Assembly (NCBI GenBank): GCA_944392125.1
Contig: CALXVP010000001.1
Span: 132,325-196,324, forward strand
From: an uncultured Alphaproteobacteria bacterium
GTDB lineage: Bacteria; Pseudomonadota; Alphaproteobacteria; CAAHEQ01; UBA3637
Length of the DNA stretch: 64,000 nucleotides
Direction: 5' to 3'
Part shown: one piece after another, positions 1,979-58,005 of the stretch
How positions within the stretch are numbered: the first letter of the stretch is position 1
How the letters are laid out: each line of letters opens with the position of its first letter
Notes under the pieces: generated by a model
What the model was told of the DNA's origin: nothing
What the model saw: the letters and a program-made list of their open reading frames with translations, nothing else
The model's database searches: none
Program-made: the position numbers and the translations under genes

Positions 1979-4861
1979 TCAATGCTGTTTACACGTATAA
2001 CCCGTAATCACGCCATCGGCATTTGTGGATGCAACAGCCTCACGGTTATCGCAACTATTGCATAATGCAACGGACTCGCTATCCGTCCCGATAGTGCGAT
2101 TGCCACCCTCACTGCATAACAAGCAATTTCCGTTGGAATCTTGCCACAACCCCGGCACACATTCTTCAACACATTTTGCCGTGAGGTTATTTGTGGCACT
2201 ATTGCCGAGCGTCATTTCACGGCGATTATCGCAAGAATCGCAAAGATTATCTTCATTCGGATTCACGGCAACATTCTTTTCCGAACAATCACGACATGTA
2301 TTATTTGTATCTAAAAACTGGTGTGTTTCTTCGCATTTACCGTATTGACACAACCCGTTACTATATCGTCTGTTTGCGCATAAATTGCATTGTGCGACTC
2401 CGGCACCCGGAGACACCTTTTCATCCGAACATGAATAGCACTTATAATCGTTTCCACGAAACAACTCTCCATCATGATCACCGTCAAGATAAGGCTGAGC
2501 CTTTGCTTTTATATCCTCATTCAAGTCATCAATTAAGGGACCATCTAAACTACTGCATATTCCACTACCATTATTACCGGGTGCAACTTTAACACATTTG
2601 CCATCAATTATCATCCGATTACCACATGCCAAGCATGAAGATTGCGCTATGGAATTATCACTGACTGTTGGTGTATCCTCTCCATCGCAATGATAACATT
2701 TTCCTGTATTACTTTGATAATAATCACTGTCTGCCGGACACTCTTTACGGGCACAATATCTTCCATATAATTGATGCGTTTCGCCACAAATTTTTTCACA
2801 GTCATCAGGAATTAAGGGAATAAATTGATCCGAACTAGAACAAGAAACGCATCCGTATGTATAACTGCCATCCTGTATCTCATCACTATCACAAACTGGT
2901 AAACATCTCCAATGTCCATTCGGATCTTGACCCTTCCATCGCTGTATTAGCGAGGATTTACAATTCGTTTCGCAACTCATGTCATCTTCATCAATCAAAA
3001 CACCCCCATTTTGTGTACAAGGATAACACTTTCCGTCTTTTCCTTTAAATTGATTTTCAGAACATACTTCTTCATACGAGCAATAAAATCTCAAATCATC
3101 TTGTCTGATAACTTTTCGACCGCATAATTCACACATTGTTTTTGCTTCCTCATCATTTGCCCAAATGATATTAGAGTTAATTATATCATTACATTTCAGG
3201 CACTGACTGGATGCGTTTTGCCAAACGCGATTACAATTTACTGGATCATCACATGAATCTGGCGCATCCGTCGGTTGTTCACAATTAACAACACAGTATA
3301 TCCATCCAACTCTAAATAATCTAGCACTTCTATTTGAACATTCATTGCATAATTGGTTTAAATAATCAGAATTTATATTGTTTGAAATTAAACCACCATT
3401 TATTTGAATATTATATGCAGAAGAATCAGCATCACACGAAACACATTTCCCATAATCAGTTTCTAAAAATTGGTTGTCACTGCAAGAAGTTTTTGATGCA
3501 CAATAATAACTTGCATTACTCATAATTTTAAACCAGAATCTATCCTCGCCACAAGCTAAACATTGCGCTTTTGAGACAGTATCACCGCTAATAGTATGCG
3601 GTGTTTTATCCGAGCAAGGCACACAGCCTGCGCCGTCGCTTGCTTGATATGTATATCCGTTTGTGCAAGCGTAAGAGCAATACGCTTTTTCATCGTCTAC
3701 ATCCCCGTAGTATCTCGTTGGGTTGTTGCACGCTGCGCATTGCTCTTTCCCCGACTTTGTATCCTTAAAATTTAACGCACTGTTCTCAAACGGTGTTAAA
3801 CTCACCAGAAAATTATTCGGATTACTGCATGGCACGCAAACGCCGTTTGGCGTGCGAAACTCTTTCCCAAACGCACATTCCGCAGGCACTTCCACGCAGG
3901 TGTTCGTTATCTCCGAACACGTATAATTTGTGCCTTTCTCGGCACAGTCTTTCGGCGTTAGACACTCCACACAGGCGCATTGCTCTTGATTGCAGTAAGG
4001 CGTGCTTGCATTTCCACTGCATTCATCGCGACACGTTAATGTATTTTCATCACACGTCGGCGTTCCGCAACAGGAACTGCAATCTCCGTCTTCCACACAG
4101 TTTTCATTGATGAGTGAATCCGATTCACTATTCAAAAAGATCGTAAACACCATTTCATTTTGAATATTGCCGTTTATATCTCCGCAAATAGCTACATCGC
4201 CCGTATATTTTGTGCCGTTCACTTGCACAAACTGCAATCCTTTAATGACGTTTATCAACGGCATATTTAAGACGCTTTTACAAATCCGCGAACTCACTTC
4301 GCCCACAAATACCCGAAATGCCACATCGGGTTTAGATTGCATAGATATCGGAAAGCCCGACGCTGTGGTTTGCGCAAATTCTAAAAAATCTTTTCCGCTC
4401 TCGCTCGGTTCGGGTAACGGCATTCGCTGATACCGATTCCATATATCCGTTGCTCGCAGATTCACTTCATAGATAATATCGTTTGACCGATATTTTTCCA
4501 TGGCATACCGATAGCCTGCAATTCCCGCAACCGACAACACACCAATCACCGCCAACACGCCCAGCATTTCTACCATACTCCGACCGCATTCGGCTAAATA
4601 CATACCCCTTAATCCGTTCAATCCGTGCAATCCCCGCACATTCCTTAATCCACTTAATCCATGCAACCCGCAAAATCCGCCAAATCCACGTTGCGTTTGT
4701 GATTCTGGTGAATATTCCGCTTTTTGATTGTTTTTCAAGCGCGTGAGACTATTTTGATTCGCTGATTTTATCTCTTGTTTTGCGCGATTCGCCTCAAATT
4801 CCCTGTTTTTTACTTTTTTTGCATAAAAAGAAGCCACGTTAACTATTTGTTTTATTTTCAT
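1979..4861 (-). CDS. giant cysteine-rich protein with a type IV pilin-like N-terminal domain (class III signal peptide ...ECG|RSMVEMLGVLAVIGVLSVAGIAGYRYAM) and many CxxC-containing repeats; the true start is probably internal
   Basis: Prepilin-peptidase motif: G-1, E+5, hydrophobic helix, G14 and Y24 at pilin-conserved positions. More than 90 Cys with a recurring K/QCxxC periodicity. The annotated 93-aa leader contains GLHGLSGL/GLHGLNGLRG encoded by roughly 9-nt repeats. Paralogous to the gene at 16830-18500. Confidence 0.55.
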   Translation of the reverse strand: MKIKQIVNVASFYAKKVKNREFEANRAKQEIKSANQNSLTRLKNNQKAEYSPESQTQRGFGGFCGLHGLSGLRNVRGLHGLNGLRGMYLAECGRSMVEMLGVLAVIGVLSVAGIAGYRYAMEKYRSNDIIYEVNLRATDIWNRYQRMPLPEPSESGKDFLEFAQTTASGFPISMQSKPDVAFRVFVGEVSSRICKSVLNMPLINVIKGLQFVQVNGTKYTGDVAICGDINGNIQNEMVFTIFLNSESDSLINENCVEDGDCSSCCGTPTCDENTLTCRDECSGNASTPYCNQEQCACVECLTPKDCAEKGTNYTCSEITNTCVEVPAECAFGKEFRTPNGVCVPCSNPNNFLVSLTPFENSALNFKDTKSGKEQCAACNNPTRYYGDVDDEKAYCSYACTNGYTYQASDGAGCVPCSDKTPHTISGDTVSKAQCLACGEDRFWFKIMSNASYYCASKTSCSDNQFLETDYGKCVSCDADSSAYNIQINGGLISNNINSDYLNQLCNECSNRSARLFRVGWIYCVVNCEQPTDAPDSCDDPVNCNRVWQNASSQCLKCNDIINSNIIWANDEEAKTMCELCGRKVIRQDDLRFYCSYEEVCSENQFKGKDGKCYPCTQNGGVLIDEDDMSCETNCKSSLIQRWKGQDPNGHWRCLPVCDSDEIQDGSYTYGCVSCSSSDQFIPLIPDDCEKICGETHQLYGRYCARKECPADSDYYQSNTGKCYHCDGEDTPTVSDNSIAQSSCLACGNRMIIDGKCVKVAPGNNGSGICSSLDGPLIDDLNEDIKAKAQPYLDGDHDGELFRGNDYKCYSCSDEKVSPGAGVAQCNLCANRRYSNGLCQYGKCEETHQFLDTNNTCRDCSEKNVAVNPNEDNLCDSCDNRREMTLGNSATNNLTAKCVEECVPGLWQDSNGNCLLCSEGGNRTIGTDSESVALCNSCDNREAVASTNADGVITGYTCKQH

Positions 4862-5185
4862 TTTTCTTTCTCCCCATTCTTCATAAAGGTCCGTTTATGT
4901 AGAGGGAGAACAGCACAAAATCGCCCCGCGAAATGAAATTTCAAAAAATTATTATTTTACAAGTAGATATTCATATTTAAATTTTTACTTGATTATTTTA
5001 AAAATACCCTTATAATCCTCTTTATACTATATCATCTAGACGGACCTTTTTGTAGAGTGAATCACTGCTGACCGTAAAATCCGTGATTTTAGATAAATTC
5101 ATTGTTTCGTTCCCTATTCTAAACGCGCCAATGCCCTTGTCGGAAAAATAGGTGTATCCGATTGTGCGCTTTTAAAAAAGTGAAT

Positions 5186-7408
5186 TTAGGAGCCGAATTT
5201 ATTGCTTCTTGGGAAGCCAACCGGCGGGAATTTCCCGACTGTTGCCCGTTTGGCTAACCACAAATTAATGTTGCGTTCTACCCGCGTGCCGTTGCCACTC
5301 GGAAATGATAACCCGTCTTCCAAATTAAAGAACTTGGCATCCGATAACTTTGCTTCCTGATACCGCTGTAAGATTACACCGCTACCGCGAGTCATTGTCG
5401 GAATCTCATCGGCCGAAAACACCACCATTTTGCGATTCGTGCCGATAACGGCAACATGTGTTCCGTTGGCGGGTTTACAAAGCAATGCCTTATCCCCCTC
5501 AGCCAAATTCAAAATAATCTTGCCAGCTCGTGTTTGCGCAATTACATCGTTGCTGTTCACAATAAATCCTTTTCCGTTTCGCGATGCAACCAGCAATTTT
5601 TGATCGGGTTGCCAGGCAAACATCGTTACAATCTCAGCATCCTCAGCCACGTCAACCGATAATCTTAACGGCTCGCCATATCCGCGCCCGCCCGCAATAT
5701 TATTGCCCAAAATCGTGTAAAAACGACCGTTATCGGCAAATAATACAATGTTATCGGTTGTATACGTCTTTAAGGATAATTTAAGAGAATCGCCCTCTTT
5801 GAATTTAACATCGTCGGCCGAATCAATATGCCCTTTCATGGCGCGTATCCAGCCTTGTTTTGAAAGAACAACCGTTATCGGTTCTTTTTCAATCATCGCT
5901 TCTATGGAAATTTCTACTTCTTTCGGCGCTTCTGCTACAAGCGTCCGCCGTTTGCCGAGTTCCGTTTTCTGCCCGAATTTCTTTTGTATTTCTTTGATTT
6001 CTTCCGCTAATTTATTCTTGCGCAACTCCTCATCGGTCAGTAAGGCTTCCAAACCTTCTTTTTCAATCTCCAAATTCTTATATTCGGTTTTAATTTGTTC
6101 TTCTTCTAATTTTCTGAGTGAACGCAACCGCATGTTTAAAATGGCTTCCGCTTGAATATCCGAAAGGGAAAACTCTTTCATCATCACAACTTTCGGCTCA
6201 TCTTCGTTGCGAATAATTTCAATCACGCGATCCAAATTCAAATACGCAATTAAAAACCCTTGCAATAATTCCATTCTGTGCGCAATTTTATCGAGCCGAT
6301 ATTTTGATTTGCGGATTAAAACCGTATCACGATGTTTTAAAAAGGCAGTCAGCACCTCGCGTATATTCATAACGCGCGGTGTATGATCTGCATCCAACAC
6401 ATTCATATTTAAGTTGAAATTAACTTGTAAATCCGTGTTTTTAAACAGATGTTCCATTAACTGTTCCGGTTCAACCGAACGTGATTTCGGCTCCAACACC
6501 AACCGAACAACATCCGATGATTCATCGCGAATATCCGCCAACATCGGCAACTTCTTTTCCGATAATAACTTGGCAATGCGTGCCACCAAATCCGATTTTT
6601 GAACTTGATACGGAATTTCCGTTACAACAATCTGATATTGCCCATGCGAAAGATCTTCTTTTTCCCATTTTGCACGCACTTTCATTGCCCCGCGCCCCTC
6701 CGTATACGTTTTAACGATACTTTCGTGACTTTCGGCCAAAATACCGCCTGTCGGGAAATCGGGGCCTTGAATAAACGTCATCAACCGTTCAATTTCCGCG
6801 TCCGGTTTTTTCAATAAATACAAAAGCGCATCACATACTTCACCCACGTTATGCGGTGGAATGTTTGTTGCCATACCGACGGCAATTCCCGACGCCCCGT
6901 TTGCCAGCAAATTCGGAAAAGCGGCCGGCATAACCATCGGCTCTTCCTCCTCGCCGTCATACGTCTTTTCAAAATCAACGGCATCATCATCCAGCCCGTC
7001 CATCAACGCAACGGCAACAGCCGTTAACCGCGCTTCCGTATAACGCATGGCTGCGGCTTTATCGCCGTCTATATTTCCGAAGTTACCCTGCCCGTCTACC
7101 AACGGATACCGCACGGCAAAATCTTGTGCCAAACGCACCATTGCTTCATATACCGACGAATCCCCGTGCGGGTGATACTTACCGATAACATCACCCACCA
7201 CACGGGCGCATTTCTTAAAGCCCGAAACCGGGTCCAGCTTTAATTGCCTCATGGCAAATAAAAGCCGGCGATGCACGGGTTTTAAACCGTCTCGCACATC
7301 CGGCAACGATCGTGCCACAATCGTGGAAACGGCATACGCCAAATATCTCTCGGAGAGGGCATTTGCCAGTTTTGTTTCTCTAATATTTTCCGTTATGACT
7401 TCATTCAT
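5186..7408 (-). CDS. parC: DNA topoisomerase IV subunit A (ParC; GyrA-family, 740 aa, lacking the long GyrA C-terminal extension)
   Basis: The N-terminus [30 protein letters not shown] and the active-site region [10 protein letters not shown] are typical of GyrA/ParC. The 740-aa length favours ParC. Confidence 0.8.
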
Positions 7409-16829: not shown

Positions 16830-18500
16830 ATGAATATACAGATACACAAAATTACGGGAGACGGAATGAAAAAAACGATTTCTTTTTTTAAACAAATAGG
16901 TTGTCTAGAGCAAGAGAGTATACAAAGCAAAATGCCTCATCACTCGGCTTTGTCCACTGATTTTCCTGCGATACACACCGAGAAAGCCGAATCGGGGCGA
17001 TCCATGGTGGAAATACTGGCGGTGTTGGCGATTATGGGCGTGTTGGCCGTTGTGGGGATTGTGGTTTATAAATACGCCATGGATAAACACCGCGCCAATA
17101 CGATTTTACAAGATGCACATCTCGGCTTTGCCTCTATCAGAGGCACACGTGCCGAACAATTTGATTGGACGCCCGTTAATTTTGAGCCTAAAAGCGGAAA
17201 GCCCGTTGATGTTTTGCGCGATTCCGATAGAGATGACTATGTGCGCGTGCAAGAAATTGAACTTTCGGTTTGCAAACAAATTTTATTGATGGCCGTTCCG
17301 GGGAAATTGATGTTTTACGATGAACAAGGCGAAGATATGCTTACCTGCCCCGATGAATTAAACACGATTATCTTTGCGTTTGAGGGCACACGGGCGCCGG
17401 GCGTCAACTGCGAAACGGGCACCGACTGCGAGGGCGAAGGCGAAGGCGCATATTGCAATATGGATAAAGGAGTTTGTCGCACCTGCCCTGTGGAAGAAGG
17501 ATTTGTTGTCAGCCCGAACGGAGAGGCTTGTTGGCCTGTTTGCGATGAAGATACCGAAACAACCTGTATGACGGACACCGAACGTTGGTGTTGCAATAAC
17601 GAAACCGAGCTTTGCGGAGATGAAGCAGGCGTGTGCGAACTTTCAAGCGGTGTTTGCGAATATCGGTTAAAATCTCAAACAAGCGAAAAAGAGGCTGATT
17701 GCAGTTATCGGTATGAAAACCAAACCAGTAAAAAATATTCTGAGTGTGAATGCAAATTTACAAACCAAACTAGTGAAAAATATGCTGATTGCAGTTACGA
17801 AAGTTCTGGCACAGCCGAAAATTTCAAACTGAACCTCATAAAAGGGTGTCCCAGTGGACAATATTGTTATTTGGCATACTCGGACGACAGTTGTGAAAAT
17901 TCACTGGGTAGCGCAGGTGCTTCAATCATGCATGGCACATGCACGGCTTGGGCAATGACAAATCCGTCGTGCCGTATCCGTTCATTGGGGGATGTGTTGT
18001 CTTCGTGTACAACATGTCCAAACGGGCAATATTGCTATCTAGCATACAAGGATGATCAGTGTGAGCAAACTCTTGGCAGTGAGGGTGCAGCCACTATGTA
18101 CGGAACATGTACGGCTTGGGCAATGACAAATCCAACTTGTCGTATTAAAGAATTGAGCGGGGTTGTTACACCAATTCAAACGTGTCCAAACGGGCAATAT
18201 TGCTATTTGGCTTATCAAGATGAAGGTTGCGAATCCTCACTGGGCAGTACCGGAGCGGAGATCATGTACGGTGCTTGCACGGCTTGGGCAATGACAAATC
18301 CAACTTGCCCAATTAAATGGTTGGATACTGATATACTGACGCCCGTGGAAAAATGCCCAAGTAGTAAGTACTGCTACTTAAAATATGCGTCACCCGGTTG
18401 TGTGGATCCTGTAGGTTCAACCGGTTCAGACCCAATTTATGGTGTTTGTATTCCAGGAAACTCCAATAATGCAAACTGTCCTAGTGAGAGTTCAGAATAA
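16830..18500 (+). CDS. cysteine-rich tandem-repeat protein with a type IV pilin-like N-terminus (…ESG|RSMVEILAVLAIMGVLAVVGIVVYKYAM); paralogue of 1979-4861; the real start is probably internal (for example M35 at about 16932)
   Basis: Same class III signal-peptide motif as the 960-aa protein. Four C-terminal roughly 55-aa repeats (CPNGQYCYLAY...GTCTAWAMTNPTCRI). The stop overlaps the avd start (TAATG). Confidence 0.55.
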   Translation: MNIQIHKITGDGMKKTISFFKQIGCLEQESIQSKMPHHSALSTDFPAIHTEKAESGRSMVEILAVLAIMGVLAVVGIVVYKYAMDKHRANTILQDAHLGFASIRGTRAEQFDWTPVNFEPKSGKPVDVLRDSDRDDYVRVQEIELSVCKQILLMAVPGKLMFYDEQGEDMLTCPDELNTIIFAFEGTRAPGVNCETGTDCEGEGEGAYCNMDKGVCRTCPVEEGFVVSPNGEACWPVCDEDTETTCMTDTERWCCNNETELCGDEAGVCELSSGVCEYRLKSQTSEKEADCSYRYENQTSKKYSECECKFTNQTSEKYADCSYESSGTAENFKLNLIKGCPSGQYCYLAYSDDSCENSLGSAGASIMHGTCTAWAMTNPSCRIRSLGDVLSSCTTCPNGQYCYLAYKDDQCEQTLGSEGAATMYGTCTAWAMTNPTCRIKELSGVVTPIQTCPNGQYCYLAYQDEGCESSLGSTGAEIMYGACTAWAMTNPTCPIKWLDTDILTPVEKCPSSKYCYLKYASPGCVDPVGSTGSDPIYGVCIPGNSNNANCPSESSE

Positions 18501-18868
18501 TGTCTTCTCGGAGTGAACTTTTACCGATATACATAGCCTGTTACCGTTTAACGCAGGAAATTTTTTCGTGTACGATAAAATTTCCAAAAGAGTATAAATT
18601 TCTCTTAGGACAGTCATTAAATGAAAACGCCTTAAATTTATGCTGTTTAATTTCTCGCATAAACCAAATGACACAAAAGGGAACGTATTTTGAGGACTTT
18701 TTTGCGACATTTGAACGTGTGCGGATAGAATTACGTTTGAGTGCAGATTTTAATTTACTGAGCTTAAAAAAACAAGCGCATCTGGCAGTTATGCTTGAAG
18801 ATATCCATACTCAAGCGCTTGCTTGGAGGAGAAGCAACTTAAAAAAGGAGGAAAAAACGATTACATAA
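18500..18868 (+). CDS. avd: DGR accessory variability determinant (Avd-like four-helix-bundle protein)
   Basis: 122 aa. LPIYIACYRLTQEIFSCTIKFPKEYKFLLGQSL matches the Avd / four-helix-bundle family pattern. Position is immediately upstream of the TR and RT. Confidence 0.75.
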   Translation: MSSRSELLPIYIACYRLTQEIFSCTIKFPKEYKFLLGQSLNENALNLCCLISRINQMTQKGTYFEDFFATFERVRIELRLSADFNLLSLKKQAHLAVMLEDIHTQALAWRRSNLKKEEKTIT

Positions 18869-19030
18869 TCGGCCGGAGTCAGGGAAAATTCCGAATTATC
18901 CTGAGTGAGCTATATTTTAATTTTAAAAGGGTCAGTCACCAAATGATGTTTAGTAGAATTAAACGATATTTGGTATATATAATAGTATTGACTTATTCAC
19001 GGAAGATTTTTATCTTCTATAACGCCTTAG

Positions 19031-19118
19031 GCGTTAATCTTTCTTCCGGAGATGTGAACAACAACAACCGTAACAACACTAACTACGCAGTTTGTCAGTA
19101 GGTTAGGCGCCGCTTTTA
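19031..19118 (+). repeat. DGR template repeat (TR, 19031-19101) plus a conserved 3' IMH-like extension gttaggcgccgctttta (19102-19118)
   Basis: Near-identical to the 3' end of the minus-strand gene 20461-20871. Every mismatch maps to an adenine in this copy. It is A-rich (AAC)n, and its translation (…NNNNRNNTNYAVCQ) appears as the spurious ORF 18823-19101. Confidence 0.85.
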
Positions 19119-19141
19119 AAATTAAAATTTAATAAATTGAT

Positions 19142-20440
19142 ATGGAACAGATTGATTTTTTTAACTTATTATCTGATTTAACACTTGAAGATGTATTTCA
19201 AGCGTATTTTGAGTGTCGCCGAAACAAAAGGCGCACGCTATCGTCTTTAAATTTTGAAATGAACTACGAACAAAATTTAATTCAACTATGGAAAGACATA
19301 ACGCAAAGGCGCTATCAACTAGCTGATTCTAATGCTTTTATTGTAAAATATCCTGTCCCACGAGAAGTATTTGCAGCACAATTTAGAGATAGAATTGTTC
19401 ATCATCTCGTAATTGGACGGTTATTACCGCATTTTGAAAAAGCTTTTTCAGATTATTCATATAGTTGCCGCGCTGGGAAAGGAACATTGTATGGCATTCG
19501 TGACATAGAAGAAATGCTCAAAATTTGCTCTAAAAATTACACAAAAAATTGTTTTGTTTTACGTTTAGACATTGAGGGTTTTTTCTTCCATATCGACAAA
19601 CGAATATTGCATAAACAAATTATATCACTTGTTAATAATTCCTATTTTAAATCAAATAAATCCACAATACTCTATCTTATTGACTTAATTTTAAACGATA
19701 AACCAACAATTCACTGCAAAAAAAAGACGCCGCAAAACAGTTGGAAAAATTTACCAAGAACAAAAAGCCTATTTTATGCAGATAGGGATTGTGGCTTGCC
19801 TATCGGAAATTTAACAAGCCAAATTTTTGCAAATTTTTATTTAAACGGGTTAGACCATTACATCACACAACTGAATCCGGAATTGTTCTATGGCCGGTAC
19901 GTGGATGACATGGTACTTATTCATTCCGACAAAGAATACCTGTGCCACGTAAAAAACTTAATTCAAACTTATCTTCATAATAACTTAAACCTTAATTTAC
20001 ACCCTAAAAAAATAGTCTTACAACACTACGGAAAAGGCTTTTTATTCATTGGAGCATACATTCTTCCAAATCGAACATATCCGTCCAAAAGGCTACAAAA
20101 ATCTTTTTATAGGCGAATTTCATATCTGAATAACCTGTGGAAAAATAAAAATATGAATACAGTTGAAAAAGAATTGGTAAATAAAACATTATGTATCTTA
20201 AATTCCTATTTTGGGCTACTTAGGAACTTCAATTCTTGGCGTATTAAACTGAAAGGTTGGAATATGCTTTCTCCCGAAATAAGAGAGGTTTTTTTTAGTG
20301 ACTTAAATTTTTCAAAAGTCAAAATTTGCGATAAAATGAAAGAAAGGTTTAGAGTTGAGGCACGTAACATTCTGCAGCCCCCGCTAATGGGGCTGCAAAA
20401 TAAAACCGCCTTTTTAAAAAGGCGGTTTAAGAAAAAATAA
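19142..20440 (+). CDS. diversity-generating retroelement reverse transcriptase
   Basis: RT motifs, including YVDDMVLI (YxDD) and the DGR-diagnostic LPIGNLTSQIFANFYL (SQ replaces the group II intron QGxxxSP). 432 aa with no maturase or endonuclease domains. Adjacent TR/VR pair. Confidence 0.9.
   Translation: MEQIDFFNLLSDLTLEDVFQAYFECRRNKRRTLSSLNFEMNYEQNLIQLWKDITQRRYQLADSNAFIVKYPVPREVFAAQFRDRIVHHLVIGRLLPHFEKAFSDYSYSCRAGKGTLYGIRDIEEMLKICSKNYTKNCFVLRLDIEGFFFHIDKRILHKQIISLVNNSYFKSNKSTILYLIDLILNDKPTIHCKKKTPQNSWKNLPRTKSLFYADRDCGLPIGNLTSQIFANFYLNGLDHYITQLNPELFYGRYVDDMVLIHSDKEYLCHVKNLIQTYLHNNLNLNLHPKKIVLQHYGKGFLFIGAYILPNRTYPSKRLQKSFYRRISYLNNLWKNKNMNTVEKELVNKTLCILNSYFGLLRNFNSWRIKLKGWNMLSPEIREVFFSDLNFSKVKICDKMKERFRVEARNILQPPLMGLQNKTAFLKRRFKKK
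20382..20436. promoter_or_regulatory. two strong hairpins inside the 3' end of the RT coding region (tgcagcccc-N7-ggggctgca at 20382-20406; aaaccgccttttt/aaaaaggcggttt palindrome at 20410-20436), immediately 3' of the VR/IMH on the target strand
   Basis: Seen directly. Their position relative to the IMH resembles the hairpin/cruciform element that enhances DGR homing. They could also terminate the convergent transcripts. Confidence 0.4.
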
Positions 20441-20443
20441 AAT

Positions 20444-20534
20444 TAAAAGCGGCGCCTAACCTACTGACAAACTGCGTAGTAAGTGGTGTAACGGCCGACG
20501 TCGTTGACCACATCTCCGGAAGAAAGATTAACGC
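20444..20534 (-). repeat. DGR variable repeat (VR, 20461-20534) plus IMH (20444-20460, gttaggcgccgctttta)
   Basis: Reverse complement aligns to TR 19031-19118. Differences are only at TR adenines (aac to gtc/gac/ggc/tac/acc), plus one extra codon relative to the TR. Confidence 0.85.
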
Positions 20535-20871
20535 GGTACGCATTTGTAGTACCAGACCCTAAGCTAGACCAAACCCACTTGTCCGGTCCCATACTGACTA
20601 CATTTGGGCAACTACCGGAAGCAGATCCTCCCAACCAGCGTTCCTCTTCACTAATGTAACAAATATCGTCCATTGAAGCCAATTCCATTCCTTGTGATTC
20701 ACACCATGTGAACGCACTCCACCAGTTCACACTAACATCACTCACACAAAAGGTTTTGCCGTTTTTACCAGTAAACATTTCGCCATCATTGCAAGTGCCT
20801 GCCCATACGGATTGAGATACCAATACGGTATAAAGTGTTAATCCAAGTAACCAAATATAATTTTTTCTCAT
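20461..20871 (-). CDS. DGR target protein: small secreted C-type-lectin-fold (CLec) protein with the VR at its C-terminus (…GDVVNDVGRYTTYYAVCQ)
   Basis: Signal peptide (LLGLTLYTVLVSQSVWA). CTLD-like motifs (WCESQGMELAS, WLGG, WVWS). The VR encodes the last roughly 24 aa, and the stop codon is followed directly by the IMH. Confidence 0.8.
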   Translation of the reverse strand: MRKNYIWLLGLTLYTVLVSQSVWAGTCNDGEMFTGKNGKTFCVSDVSVNWWSAFTWCESQGMELASMDDICYISEEERWLGGSASGSCPNVVSMGPDKWVWSSLGSGTTNAYRVNLSSGDVVNDVGRYTTYYAVCQ

Positions 20872-21089
20872 TTCATCTCCTTTTCTTCTTTGTCGTTATA
20901 ATAGTTCTGGTTCATTTTACCCGATTTTCCCGTTTTTTTGCAAGTATTATTTCTGTTTTTCTAAAAATTTATGCTTGCACTGCTCATTCGCGCACCGCTC
21001 TTAAAAAAGTGACAGTGTTTCTCTATATATAACACCTGCAAACATAACGTCGGCTTAACGTTTGTTTGTCTTCTTGATTATCCCAAAAT

Positions 21090-21419
21090 CTACGCGTTCC
21101 GTTTCCAAACACGCAATTTGTTCTTTTCTTCTTTGTTACGCAAGGCTGTTTCTAAATCAATCCCGTGCATATTCGCAAGCGAACATACGTATATCAACAC
21201 GTCCGCCAACTCGTCTGCCACATTTCCCGCAACGGAACCCGTGCCGATTGAGCCACCTTTGGCATTTTTACGGACAGCGCTAATCAACTCTCCGCATTCT
21301 TCCGCTAATAAACAACATTCATAAAAACAATCGGTTGTATTAAATCCGCGCGCTTTTTTCATTTGCAATACATACGATTGTATTTCAGCCAACGTAGGTT
21401 TTTCGGGTAAATCAATCAT
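21090..21419 (-). CDS. MazG-like nucleotide pyrophosphohydrolase domain protein
   Basis: 109 aa. EECGELISAV...ELADVLIYV is the MazG/NTP-PPase EExxE...D/E pattern. Confidence 0.6.
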   Translation of the reverse strand: MIDLPEKPTLAEIQSYVLQMKKARGFNTTDCFYECCLLAEECGELISAVRKNAKGGSIGTGSVAGNVADELADVLIYVCSLANMHGIDLETALRNKEEKNKLRVWKRNA

Positions 21420-45876: not shown

Positions 45877-46773
45877 TTATTCTCCTATCGGATAAAAAGT
45901 TACGCTGACGCCTGTAAATGTAATTTTTTGATTTTTCCCCACCGAAAAACCTGCATTATCCGGAGCCCCGTAACTGGCACCCCACGACGATTCAAAAACT
46001 CGGACAGAATCAATATCCAGCCATGATGTTCGGTTATTTCCGCCGGCACGAACAACACAAAGGCCATTGGAAGGCGTCGTATATCCCGAGCTAACGGAAA
46101 TAGCCCCCTTATAATCGGGAGTCCCTTTTTCTTTGATAAATGTATTTAGCCAGCTTGTTGTAACAATATCTTGGCAATTACTCTCTAAATCGGGCGTAAC
46201 GGCATGCGCATACATACCCGTCTTTTCCGAGTATCCTAATATAATCGCCTCACCTGCACTTTCATTCGTCAAAGGATTATAAACAACTCCCGCTACTTGC
46301 ATTGCATTATCGGCACTTTGAGATGCGCTTAATTCAAAAAGCAACGTTTCTCCGGCATTGGTTTTAAAGGCAATGGCAGGTGTTTGAATCGTCTTGTCGT
46401 CATAAATCGATTCAGTTTGCACGGTTATGTCTGATTCATTTACCACAACACCACTGTTAAATTGTTTGATACCCGAAGCTGTTTCATCACCCGTTTTATG
46501 CAAAGCCGTATCAAATTGGCGTTTATTTACGGCATCGCTTGCAACAGTTCCGTCAGCAACATTTTTGATTTGAAAATTATTCATATTTAAACTACCGCTT
46601 AACGGAACACGTCCGTCTCGCAAAAATGCCAAGTTCAATCCGTTAGCAAAATTATCATCTTCTTCATCATGCCTATCAGAAACAATATCAATTTCATTCA
46701 CACGATCTTCTTCCCAAGAATGAATTCTCGTAAAATTCCCCTCACTATCAAACGGCATATTCTCTCCTTTCAT
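45877..46773 (-). CDS. tail fibre / receptor-binding protein
   Basis: FQIKNVADGTVASDAVNKRQFD is the widespread phage tail-fibre motif (…NV.D…DAVNK.Q.D). Confidence 0.6.
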   Translation of the reverse strand: MKGENMPFDSEGNFTRIHSWEEDRVNEIDIVSDRHDEEDDNFANGLNLAFLRDGRVPLSGSLNMNNFQIKNVADGTVASDAVNKRQFDTALHKTGDETASGIKQFNSGVVVNESDITVQTESIYDDKTIQTPAIAFKTNAGETLLFELSASQSADNAMQVAGVVYNPLTNESAGEAIILGYSEKTGMYAHAVTPDLESNCQDIVTTSWLNTFIKEKGTPDYKGAISVSSGYTTPSNGLCVVRAGGNNRTSWLDIDSVRVFESSWGASYGAPDNAGFSVGKNQKITFTGVSVTFYPIGE

Positions 46774-54647: not shown

Positions 54648-56243
54648 TTATTCTTTCAACTCGGTTTCAATTTTTTGAAATACTTGCCCGATAACAGGTT
54701 CGTATTGACGTGCCGTCGGCATTGTCATTGCGATACTCTCCAACATTTTTTGATATAACGGTAAAAGCAAAGGTTGATTGGAAACAACCTCAAATGCTTT
54801 GATGATGATTTCGTTAATTAATGTAACAGATTCCAATGTGGCCTTTGCCGTATTTTCGTTTTGGTAAGATATATCCGTTTCTATTCCGAGAATCATCCCG
54901 CGCAATTTATCCGTTTTTAATAAACGAATAGCCTCATCAACCGCTTCTTGATTTGATAAATCTTCCGCCTGCAAAAACGAACGCAACGAGTCTTCCGAAA
55001 ATAATTCGCAAATCATTTCGGCTTTAATGCGCAATAAATCGGTTATAAAACGAAGCATATCATTTTGTCTGTCTTGATTGCGCAAAGTGCCGAAATTCGT
55101 TTTTTTGGTAACGGCGGTTGCCGTTTCAGACTGATTAGACGTGCCACGCATAATATCCGAAACACCCGTGATTTCGTAAATTTGTTTAGATAAATCTTCC
55201 CGTCGTTGCGCCAAAGCCTGCAAAGCTTCCACATATTGCGTAATCGGAATAAAATCTATTGCACCGCGAATACCGCCCACTTCTTTCAAACGATCAAATT
55301 CCGGAATGGAAACAAGTGTAACGTCTTTTTCAAAAATATCCGCTAACCGACTAAATGAATTATCATACACGCCACTCACTTTTAACGCTTTCATTGTTAA
55401 CCGCATGCGTTCATTGATGCCATCCATTTCATTTAACATTGTTCGGATTTGAACAAAATCGGGGACGGGCACCAATCCATCATTTGCCAATGTTGCAAAA
55501 ATGGGCTTGGGAAACGGGAAAAAACCATCTAAATGCAAATAGTCTTCAATGATTTTTAAAAACCTGTTCGGCAGAGATTCCGTTAAATACTTAACGGTTC
55601 TATCCGTTTTATCCCAAATTTCGTAGATAACAATCTGATTTTTATCATCACCTGAAAGAGATTGAAAAATATCATCACCGAATTGTTCACGCGCTTCTTT
55701 AACCGTCATGTTAATTTTTCGGGCAATCCAGGAAACATCTTCCCAAACATTAACATTTTCCGTATCAATTAAAAAATCTTTCGGCGATACGTAAACGGTA
55801 TCCACTTGCTCCGTTTCAATAATATCCACTTGATTTTCTGCGTCCAACGTCTTAAAGACCGGTTGATATTTTTCATAGCAAACCCCCATACCCACCAGCA
55901 AAAAATCATTTCTGGCGTATTTAATTACACTATCAAAATCAAAATGAGATAAATTCCAATCAAGAGCGCGTTCCATTATTTTACAAGCCAATGCCGCCGA
56001 TTGATTCGTTGATTTATCTTTTCTTTCAATATACGGCTTTGGCGTTTTAAAATATAAAAACGGTTTAAGCGTTTCAATAGAAGACCAAAACAAGTTATTG
56101 ATGTTTTTATTTTTATCGTTTTTATAATAGTTTCTTATTTTATCAATCAATTCATGATAATCTTTATATTTTTCTTTGGACTTTTGAATTCTATGCAGCC
56201 ATACATCAACCGCCATCGGATTCACTAAATTATCCTCTTGCAT
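54648..56243 (-). CDS. portal protein (candidate)
   Basis: 531 aa. Position between TerL/GroES-like and the scaffold/capsid genes. Acidic helical C-terminus. Confidence 0.55.
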   Translation of the reverse strand: MQEDNLVNPMAVDVWLHRIQKSKEKYKDYHELIDKIRNYYKNDKNKNINNLFWSSIETLKPFLYFKTPKPYIERKDKSTNQSAALACKIMERALDWNLSHFDFDSVIKYARNDFLLVGMGVCYEKYQPVFKTLDAENQVDIIETEQVDTVYVSPKDFLIDTENVNVWEDVSWIARKINMTVKEAREQFGDDIFQSLSGDDKNQIVIYEIWDKTDRTVKYLTESLPNRFLKIIEDYLHLDGFFPFPKPIFATLANDGLVPVPDFVQIRTMLNEMDGINERMRLTMKALKVSGVYDNSFSRLADIFEKDVTLVSIPEFDRLKEVGGIRGAIDFIPITQYVEALQALAQRREDLSKQIYEITGVSDIMRGTSNQSETATAVTKKTNFGTLRNQDRQNDMLRFITDLLRIKAEMICELFSEDSLRSFLQAEDLSNQEAVDEAIRLLKTDKLRGMILGIETDISYQNENTAKATLESVTLINEIIIKAFEVVSNQPLLLPLYQKMLESIAMTMPTARQYEPVIGQVFQKIETELKE

Positions 56244-56679: not shown

Positions 56680-58005
56680 TTACCACTCGTTCCGGGATGA
56701 ATGAGATAATCGATTGGCATCCGAAAACATTTTTTCTATGGTAATTCGTCCGTTACCGTAAAATGTATCCTCACCGGTATCATAAACAGGTTCGGCAAAT
56801 GTCAGTGCAAGCGCATCGGCTTTATCGGGAGAACGCCCCAACCTTTTTTTAACTTCCTCTTTTTCTTCCAGTTGCAACCGCCCCATTTTATCATATTTTT
56901 TATTTACCGAGACCAGCTCATCCAACAGGCTTTCATCATACGGCAGTTGAACGGCCTCACCGAGCCAAGCCCGAACGGAATCCCACATTTCAGCCCGCCT
57001 GTTTGTATACCGATCCGAATTAATGGCTTTTTCGCCGAAATAAATACCACGCACGATTCTTCCGTAACCTCTGTCTTTCAAAATATCATAAACGCCGGCA
57101 CCTTGCCCGCCGATATCCATAAAAACTCTGGCCGGATGATACTGTTGTATGAAATGTGTCGTTAAATTAGCAACCTCAACCGTATCATATTGATTATAAA
57201 CTTCAAAACGGGAACAAAGTCGCCCTTTCCGAAAACAAAAAACCGTGGAATCATCACCAAATCGTGCAATATCCAACCCGATAATCAACGGACTTGTGGA
57301 AGATATGATTTTTGCCTCAAAAGCACGTCTGACCATTTCGGCATTCATCAATTTTGTATGCCCTTGTCGCACCGGTTCTCCCAACCAAATATGTGCATAA
57401 TCCTCCGGATTTTGTTGACGGGATTTTTCGGCCTGTATTTTTAACTCTTCGGAACAAAACGGATTATCGCAATAATTTACTTTAACCACCAACGTTCGTT
57501 CATCGGGATGACTGCCGACAGCCACCCATATCGGATCATTTTCGGCCTCGCGATTCATGGAAATCCAAATTTCGGATCCATCTTTACGAATGGTCGGTTC
57601 CAAAATTTCCCATGATTTTTTCGTTATGGTTTGCGCTTCCTCAATCCAAGCAATATCCGTTCCTTCCAGTGATTTAATTTTTTGCGGATCTTGATCTCTT
57701 AATCCCTTAAAAACAATTCGTGAGCCGTTTTTTAAATTGATGATTTCATCCGCCTTAATTTGCCAATTGGGCAAGCCGTGCACCGAAATTCTATCCGCAA
57801 TCAATTTATATACCGAATCCCGAATTGATTCTTGCACCTCCCGTAAACAAACCGCAAATAGTTTTTTACGCGTTGCCCTTACCAACAACGCATCGGCAAA
57901 CGCATACGACTTTCCACCGCCACGACCGCCGTAATACAATTTAATCCGATATTTTTTTGTAATCAACGGCAAGAACGGGCGGGCAATTTGAATATTAACC
58001 TGCAT
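56680..58005 (-). CDS. terL: terminase large subunit (PBSX/Terminase_3-like)
   Basis: Walker A YYGGRGGGKSY, Walker B-like IAWIEEAQ, and a C-terminal RNaseH-like nuclease region with conserved Asp (LDIARFGDDSTV). Confidence 0.85.
   Translation of the reverse strand: MQVNIQIARPFLPLITKKYRIKLYYGGRGGGKSYAFADALLVRATRKKLFAVCLREVQESIRDSVYKLIADRISVHGLPNWQIKADEIINLKNGSRIVFKGLRDQDPQKIKSLEGTDIAWIEEAQTITKKSWEILEPTIRKDGSEIWISMNREAENDPIWVAVGSHPDERTLVVKVNYCDNPFCSEELKIQAEKSRQQNPEDYAHIWLGEPVRQGHTKLMNAEMVRRAFEAKIISSTSPLIIGLDIARFGDDSTVFCFRKGRLCSRFEVYNQYDTVEVANLTTHFIQQYHPARVFMDIGGQGAGVYDILKDRGYGRIVRGIYFGEKAINSDRYTNRRAEMWDSVRAWLGEAVQLPYDESLLDELVSVNKKYDKMGRLQLEEKEEVKKRLGRSPDKADALALTFAEPVYDTGEDTFYGNGRITIEKMFSDANRLSHSSRNEW

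Follow-up and report, generated by a model that had tools for sequence, protein, structure and literature searches.

The window, a 64,000-nucleotide (nt) stretch of contig CALXVP010000001.1 from an uncultured gut alphaproteobacterium that was analysed at its full length, contains a diversity-generating retroelement (DGR) whose target is a gene for a small C-type-lectin-like protein. The cassette comprises avd, a template repeat (TR) and a reverse transcriptase (RT) gene, in that order on the forward strand (18500-20440), with the target gene (20461-20871, reverse strand; 136 residues) convergent on the opposite strand. The RT (19142-20440, forward strand; 432 residues) carries the IGNLTSQ and YVDD motifs and matches Pfam RVT_1 (5e-16). 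Its nearest annotated relatives are in phages: comparison with a phage collection gave 93 matches, Bordetella phage records included, with the RTs of Bacteroides phages F1/F2/F4 at 33-40% identity. Avd, the accessory variability determinant (18500-18868, forward strand; 122 residues), scores 1e-9 against Pfam bAvd (39.2 bits, where the cutoff is 40) and 5e-12 against NCBIfam DivGenRetAVD, below the cutoff of that model, and its size and its position adjoining TR and RT are canonical. Directly upstream of avd lies pil556 (16830-18500, forward strand), which encodes a cysteine-rich type-IV-pilin-like protein of 556 residues with a G/RSMVE motif and a series of 168-nt repeats. The stop codon of pil556 overlaps the avd start codon (TAATG), an arrangement that suggests DGR expression from the operon of the pilin-like gene. 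As pil556 occupies the canonical target slot upstream of avd we considered it as a DGR target, and rejected it because it contains no TR-like sequence.

The assignment of the reverse-strand gene as the DGR target, already made in the initial annotation, rests on a clear pair of repeats. The TR (19031-19118, forward strand) is AAC-rich, with seven AAC codons. The variable repeat (VR; 20444-20534, reverse strand) begins at codon 113/114 of the target, continues through codon 136 and the stop codon and ends 17 nt further on, taking in the GC-rich GGCGCCGC; it thereby covers the last 23 residues of the protein, close to the roughly 24 first estimated. A 28-mer from the flanking 3' block of the repeat occurs exactly twice in the window, where zero occurrences are expected. 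All eight substitutions between the window TR and VR fall at TR adenines, and the VR is one codon longer than the TR, a 3-nt insertion that places five codons before CGT (20494-20508) where the TR has four AAC codons (19057-19068). With RT clade motifs, Avd, adenine bias, and a VR at the 3' end of the target followed by an element resembling the initiation of mutagenic homing (IMH) sequence and an inverted repeat, every feature that defines a DGR is present. By our own calculation, the 17 variable adenines of the TR (seven AAC codons plus GAT, ACT and TAC) could generate a repertoire of about 10^10 sequences. A search for further VRs within the window found none.

Sequence elements around the two repeats fit this arrangement. 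GGCGCCGC is common to TR and VR, whose copies diverge after CTTTTAA, and by position it would be the GC-rich IMH-like element. An 11-bp-stem hairpin followed by a T-run (20403-20428, reverse strand; from the terminator scan, with a DNA fold z of -5.1) starts around 33 nt past the target stop codon and around 15 nt beyond the point of TR/VR divergence. It is followed by a second hairpin at about 20369-20401, both lying inside the 3' end of the RT open reading frame (ORF) on the opposite strand. The first hairpin is kept in L001, L003, L004, L005 and L059, the related loci where the available sequence reaches it. One or both hairpins are likely to serve as the target terminator, as the DGR hairpin downstream of the IMH, or as both. 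A further, 7-bp hairpin (TAACGCC-TTA-GGCGTTA; 19020-19036, forward strand) coincides with the 5' edge of the TR, its first arm being outside the repeat, and may have a role in TR RNA structure or in defining the boundary. A 92-residue ORF across this region (18823-19101, forward strand), ending ...NLSSGDVNNNNRNNTNYAVCQ, was rejected as a gene; it results from an in-frame reading of the TR, which an annotation could mistake for a small protein.

Comparison of six strains, the window and the syntenic loci L001, L005, L053, L055 and L057, suggests that the cassette is in use. The TR is identical in all six, yet each has a different VR, and 51 of the 53 TR-to-VR substitutions across the set are at TR adenines (binomial probability about 1e-24). 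Over the same strains the 337 nt of the target gene before the VR differ by just 0-4 nt, and RT and Avd, both intact, show over 99% conservation. All of the rewriting falls within about ten codons, the rest of the target gene being nearly invariant, and the positions that vary both in the window and across strains are residues 120-132. An identical target protein (P0006) and nine close variants are present in public assemblies. Members of the P0006-P0014 cluster vary almost solely at AAC-templated residues, and K, E, Q, M and W are never present at these positions, as the expected NNC codons would dictate. A natural control is provided by a sister lineage, L059 (ena:ERZ16268059 scaffold_3, 2601-5406; 76% identical protein), which lacks avd, TR and RT and in which the VR is invariant in all four cluster members. 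A five-codon VR fossil persists in this lineage, together with the IMH-like element and hairpin seen in the window, and a second mini-lectin paralogue (138 residues) lies between the target and the pilin-like gene, in place of avd, TR and RT. Taken together, the sequence comparisons make the DGR look active, with ongoing mutagenic retrohoming at the population level.

Repeat length varies among these loci. The window and L001 (6338-6429) VRs exceed the TR by 3 nt, whereas most other variants equal it in length; the L005 VR (6338-6428) is 2 nt longer, giving a frameshifted product of 147 residues (P0009) that has lost Cys135. Length differences between TR and VR are found in 7% of DGRs, mostly beside AAC runs, and have been ascribed to RT slippage (Wu et al. 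2018, PMC5758913). The excess seen here may be explained either by such slippage on the AAC run or by five-codon VRs dating from before the TR was shortened by one AAC codon. We also observed that the AAC-templated codon before the fixed arginine (residue 126; 20494-20496) is GGC, for glycine, in nearly every VR variant, a comparison that takes in the equivalent codon of L053, L055, L057 and P0007-P0014. This constancy suggests either selection for glycine or partial, 5'-limited retrohoming in which an older 3' part is shared.

The target is predicted to consist of little more than an export signal and a C-type-lectin-like fold. Its ORF is preceded by an AAGGAG Shine-Dalgarno sequence 5 nt 5' of the ATG, and a promoter-like site, TTGCAA-18-TAAAAT (20914-20943, reverse strand), is found 43 nt 5' of the ATG; with 9 of 12 positions matching, this site is not above shuffled expectation. 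Residues 1-24 resemble a signal peptide, with R2 and K3, a hydrophobic core of 13 residues and then VWA/G by heuristic features, and the mature domain (residues 25-136) contains six conserved cysteines. The N-terminal start is conserved across homologues, which speaks against translation from a site downstream of the signal. A lipoprotein reading, prompted by LAAC before the first cysteine in close relatives, was rejected for the target and most of the family, because position -1 is occupied by T, N, E, K or similar (Thr in the target, which lacks a canonical lipobox) and because that cysteine is itself among the conserved six. The motifs WCESQGMELAS, WLGG and WVWS, on which the lectin-like reading was originally based, are all found in the ORF, as is the C-terminus ...LSSGDVVNDVGRYTTYYAVCQ.

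Structure prediction bears this reading out. A first AlphaFold2 (AF2) model, of the full-length protein from a 6-sequence alignment, had a predicted local distance difference test score (pLDDT) of 77.6, with the N-terminus as a low-confidence stretch, and gave template modelling (TM) scores of 0.4-0.5. It was replaced by a model of the mature domain built from a 111-sequence alignment, with a pLDDT of 96.8 and a predicted TM score of 0.88. When this model was compared with the Protein Data Bank (PDB) using Foldseek, all of the best 50 matches were C-type-lectin-like domains (CTLDs), with probabilities of up to 1.0 and TM scores of 0.5-0.59. These included the C-terminal domain of Bd2740 (E 3e-4, TM 0.51), LLT1 (TM 0.57), the C-terminal (DUF1566) domain of Legionella Lcl (TM 0.51) and CD94, a group spanning TM 0.51-0.59 at probability 1.0; Mtd and TvpA were not among the 50. 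Structural matches in BFVD were likewise C-type lectins and DUF1566 proteins, including a 115-residue phage DUF1566 protein (TM 0.56), and the family profile compared with the PDB matched solely C-type lectins, weakly (E 0.02-1). The target has no match in Pfam or NCBIfam; Pfam Lectin_C matches 2 of 84 relatives, weakly (4e-4), and not the target itself; DUF1566 matches neither the target at E<=1 nor any of the 84 relatives at E<=0.01; and the Pfam FGE-sulfatase and Mtd models match neither the target nor the relatives scanned. As the EPN/QPD and WND calcium/sugar motifs are missing from the target sequence, the protein is best described as a CTLD and not as a demonstrable lectin, and we use the term mini-lectin in this structural sense. 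In the AF2 secondary structure the variable residues 120-132 map to the penultimate strand, the next loop and the start of the last strand, which places them on the last beta-hairpin of the modelled CTLD.

The mini-lectin belongs to a fairly large family for which neither Pfam nor NCBIfam has a model. A word-index homologue search found only five clusters, and the family was revealed by an exhaustive profile search of 1.84 billion representatives, in which 606 relatives passed E<=1e-3 and 269 passed E<=1e-10. The 150 best-scoring relatives are mostly 120-150 residues long, and the family alignments (A2/A3) share the signal-peptide-like N-terminus and the six cysteines, following the pattern C..G...G...YC.S...MNWWSAF.WC..qG..LA....C...CPN...W....AY.V.L..G.V....R......ALC. 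By a simple heuristic, 133 of 140 small family members have the basic n-region and hydrophobic core seen in the target. Every genome locus recovered with a relative (48/48) is from a metagenome-assembled genome (MAG) of an uncultured "Alphaproteobacteria bacterium" of gut or rumen, and many of the record titles mention parts of the ruminant gut (rumen, cecum, rectum, abomasum). A search of 2.9 million viral contigs returned no relative of the target. Several genomes hold roughly ten or more family copies, many of them at contig ends. In L013-L026, L033-L040 and others, many copies lie within a few hundred nt of the contig end, and contigs often break inside a repeated pilin-like gene just upstream, so that assemblies probably under-count and fragment the mini-lectin loci.

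Related cassettes accompany some of these genes. RT (57-62% identical) and Avd orthologues adjoin a mini-lectin gene in five loci (L010, L018, L027, L042 and L048), and each of those with a complete target has an adenine-biased TR/VR pair. Mismatches at adenines number 11/11 in L042, 9/9 in L027, 16/17 in L018 and 6/7 in L010, where a longer TR/VR alignment gives 14 of 18 mismatch columns at adenines. These relatives keep the order pilin-like gene, avd, TR, RT and mini-lectin; the mini-lectin gene points the same way as the cassette in L018, L027 and L048, and the opposite way in L010, L042 and the window. Matches between a TR and paralogous mini-lectins were also observed within two MAGs. In JAFTSJ01, L024 (624-724) matches the L018 TR (1841-1965), and in JAZTVX01, L017, L019 and L020 match the L048 TR, with mismatches mostly at adenine sites (for example 16/20). 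These paralogues may be remote second targets, or continuations of a contig that was broken at the VR.

The pilin-like gene beside the cassette is a recurrent companion of the family. In 28 of the 48 loci a homologue of it is found no more than 4 kb from the mini-lectin, which amounts to 28 of the 34 loci (82%) that have enough flanking sequence to be assessed. Of these 28 neighbours, 18 are upstream on the same strand, in some cases with an overlap between the two genes, and 8 have the convergent arrangement of the window. Moreover, four fusion proteins (P0118, P0124, P0138 and P0140) combine a prepilin-like N-terminus, a Cys-rich/epidermal growth factor (EGF)-like region and one to three mini-lectin domains in a single chain, and P0124 passes the TIGR02532 threshold. 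The window protein itself has four Cys-rich tandem repeats of 168 nt (56 residues) each, and begins with GRSMVEIL, with Glu at +5 and a hydrophobic helix, in a segment that aligns to the geopilin N-terminus. A second Cys-rich protein, of 960 residues (1979-4861, reverse strand), shares the prepilin-like motif GRSMVE[IM]L with the 556-residue protein, and neither of the two matches a Pfam or NCBIfam family.

These observations enable us to propose a model for the locus. By analogy with phage BPP-1, the TR would be transcribed and copied by RT and Avd into cDNA, with random bases incorporated opposite template adenines. In the same analogy this cDNA would replace the VR at the 3' end of the convergent mini-lectin gene, the replacement being bounded on its 3' side by the GC-rich IMH-like element and hairpin. 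The product would be a Sec-exported, 112-residue CTLD with three disulfides (27-42, 57-135 and 71-88), and the linkage to pilin-like genes and the fusions suggest that, in concert with the Cys-rich type-IV-pilin-like proteins, it provides a variable module for ligand binding (an adhesin). We therefore favour, with a probability of about 0.6, a chromosomal avd-TR-RT DGR whose exported mini-CTLD probably works with a type IV filament and is not a free orphan binder.

The alternative that deserves most attention is the one closest to the initial annotation, which saw in the target a free-standing secreted binder whose partner it did not name. Under this reading the mini-lectin would be soluble or periplasmic, and its proximity to pilin-like genes would reflect no more than the clustering of genes for surface proteins. 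The target comes with a putative Sec-type signal, a Shine-Dalgarno sequence, a promoter-like site and a likely terminator of its own, the pilin-like gene of the window runs convergently to it, and 6 of the 34 assessable loci have no pilin-like neighbour. Furthermore, some of the small DGR variable proteins related to Bacteroides pilus tips were found to be periplasmic and not incorporated into the pilus (bioRxiv 10.1101/2024.11.15.621889). Against this reading stand a pilin-like gene at 82% of assessable loci, mostly upstream on the same strand and including overlapping pairs, and four independent pilin-lectin fusion architectures. These weaken the idea of a free binder, which we regard as possible and distinctly less probable than a partnership with the filament.

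Two other accounts are far less plausible. The cassette might be an inactive relic in which the VR differences are old: the window and L001 VRs, at 3 nt longer than the TR, are not direct copies of the present TR, the DGR-less L059 preserves its five-codon fossil, and the L005 VR is frameshifted. Set against this are the intact and highly conserved RT and Avd, and the fact that most cluster members combine TR-length VRs and different adenine-templated codons with nearly identical scaffolds, while indels adjacent to AAC are a known by-product of DGR reverse transcription (PMC5758913); a relic is accordingly improbable. Least probable of all, to the point where we give it almost no weight, is a phage-borne DGR diversifying a receptor-binding protein. 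The phage affinities of the RT and a prophage at around 43-64 kb in the window would fit such an origin, but the cassette lies about 22 kb from the prophage, among housekeeping genes whose synteny is kept across strains, the search of viral contigs returned no relative of the target, and the target combines a signal-peptide-like N-terminus with an absence of tail-fibre domains.

Several points weigh against the filament partnership that we prefer. The 556-residue protein falls below the Pfam and NCBIfam prepilin thresholds (N_methyl E 0.29), and its residue +1 is arginine where phenylalanine or methionine is usual. The window target, being convergent with the pilin-like gene, is not co-transcribed with it, and no type IV pilus or type II secretion system machinery was found in the 64-kb window. 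Export, localisation and ligand binding of the target are all predicted, and the weakest step in the argument is how a Sec-exported protein would come to join a type IV filament, there being no obvious route. The extra codon of the window VR also counts here, and may mean that this VR predates the current TR, or that it reflects RT slippage.

The remaining surroundings of the cassette are probably not part of the system. A gene 218 bp upstream of the target on the same strand (21090-21419, reverse strand) is MazG-like, as first annotated (Pfam MazG, 3e-10), and had been suggested to share a transcript with the target. The terminator scan detected no terminator-like site between the two genes, so that read-through is possible. 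The pairing is nevertheless restricted to close strains, and in two of the six (L005, 5820-5833; L053, 2420-2433) a deletion of about 205 bp, equivalent to window positions 21039-21243, truncates mazG by its 3' two-thirds. The DGR, the target gene and the 170 nt proximal to it, in which the promoter-like site lies, are retained in both; the target is intact in L053 and carries the +2 VR frameshift in L005. Given this narrow distribution and the deletions, we rejected co-function of mazG with the target, and a functional link appears unlikely. The housekeeping genes around the cassette include fabI, a CoA-transferase gene, ybaK and others. The prophage-like block (43334-63668) is unrelated to the DGR; it contains a large terminase gene (56680-58005), a YadA-stalk-like fibre gene (45877-46773), a P22-portal-like match (54648-56243) that is weak and below the Pfam threshold, and several large ORFs without a family.

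Much of what the locus displays has precedents. The initial annotation regarded the target as unusually minimal, a view that does not survive comparison with published DGR targets, which span 44-2697 residues, the smallest being a C-type lectin (CLec) or Ig fold alone; about half of the DUF1566-class targets are short single-domain proteins, and inverted targets and AAC-adjacent indels are already known (Wu et al. 2018, PMC5758913). The short DUF1566/CLec2 targets (category 'd' of Wu et al., the Legionella LdtA class, and the Lcl C-terminal domain, PDB 8q4e) resemble the window protein in being small and CTLD-only, in having the VR at an extreme C-terminus that ends in a conserved ...A-x-C, in their avd-TR-RT architecture and in conserved cysteines that suggest extracellular disulfides, and structural comparison matches the window protein to 8q4e at TM 0.51 and to the 115-residue phage DUF1566 protein at TM 0.56. 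Conversely, the window protein has no Pfam DUF1566 match, its N-terminus resembles a Sec (SPase I-type) signal and not a lipobox, it has an N-terminal Cys-bridged beta-hairpin like that of long-form animal CTLDs, and its family is confined to gut Alphaproteobacteria MAGs and paired with pilin-like genes.

The DGR-diversified type V pili of Bacteroides share with the window a gut-bacterial chromosomal DGR, a CLec ligand-binding head, an association with pilus genes and multi-copy pilus loci spread through the genome. The motif in the window resembles, however, the class III signal of type IV pilins, whereas Bacteroides has type V lipoprotein pilins, and the lectin is a separate 136-residue protein (although fused relatives exist) where in Bacteroides it is the C-terminal domain of the pilin. 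Bordetella phage BPP-1 Mtd and Treponema TvpA, of the Mtd/FGE-sulfatase CLec subclass, have in common with the window adenine-directed mutagenesis at AAC codons and a VR at the C-terminus of a CLec fold, followed by a GC-rich element and hairpin. The window protein is much smaller, with no evident trimerisation or N-terminal domains, its gene is inverted relative to the RT, and it has neither a structural match to either protein in the best 50 nor an FGE-sulfatase or Mtd Pfam match. The best structural match is the Bdellovibrio fibre tip Bd2740 (PDB 8oks; PMC10769870; E 3e-4, TM 0.51), likewise a bacterial CTLD without a calcium site and one that is used as an adhesive tip; Bd2740, by contrast, is the tip of a 627-residue trimeric fibre, is not DGR-diversified, and has a sequence identity of 16-18%.

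Small single-domain CLec targets and DGR-diversified, pilus-associated CLec heads, as in the Bacteroides type V pili, are therefore already known, and the window cassette leaves the understanding of how DGRs work unchanged. What is new is a family without a Pfam or NCBIfam model, its restriction to and expansion within gut Alphaproteobacteria, and its association with type-IV-pilin-like genes; in the literature searched we found no paper linking DGR targets with type IV pilins. The predicted structure adds a DGR scaffold with more resemblance to canonical (animal-type) and DUF1566 CTLDs than it has to Mtd or TvpA. An unannotated family of 606 representatives (E<=1e-3) joins the list of DGR scaffolds, and DGR hypervariation appears to be tolerated by a CTLD as compact as this one, with 112 residues held together by disulfides. 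Such a small and confidently modelled domain could serve as a minimal scaffold for engineered DGR-style binders.

For the bacteria themselves, uncultured gut Alphaproteobacteria about which little is known, the locus raises the testable idea that variable mini-lectins and type-IV-pilin-like proteins are partners. It is conceivable, and we offer this more tentatively than the model for the single locus, that gut and rumen Alphaproteobacteria possess an undescribed surface system in which type IV filaments of Cys-rich pilin-like subunits are combined with interchangeable mini-CTLD binding modules, dozens in number, and a DGR in the pilin operon hypervaries one or a few of these. If so, this system could include the remote targeting of paralogues, such as L024 by the L018 TR, and would do for type IV filaments what DGR-diversified tips do for the type V pili of Bacteroides.

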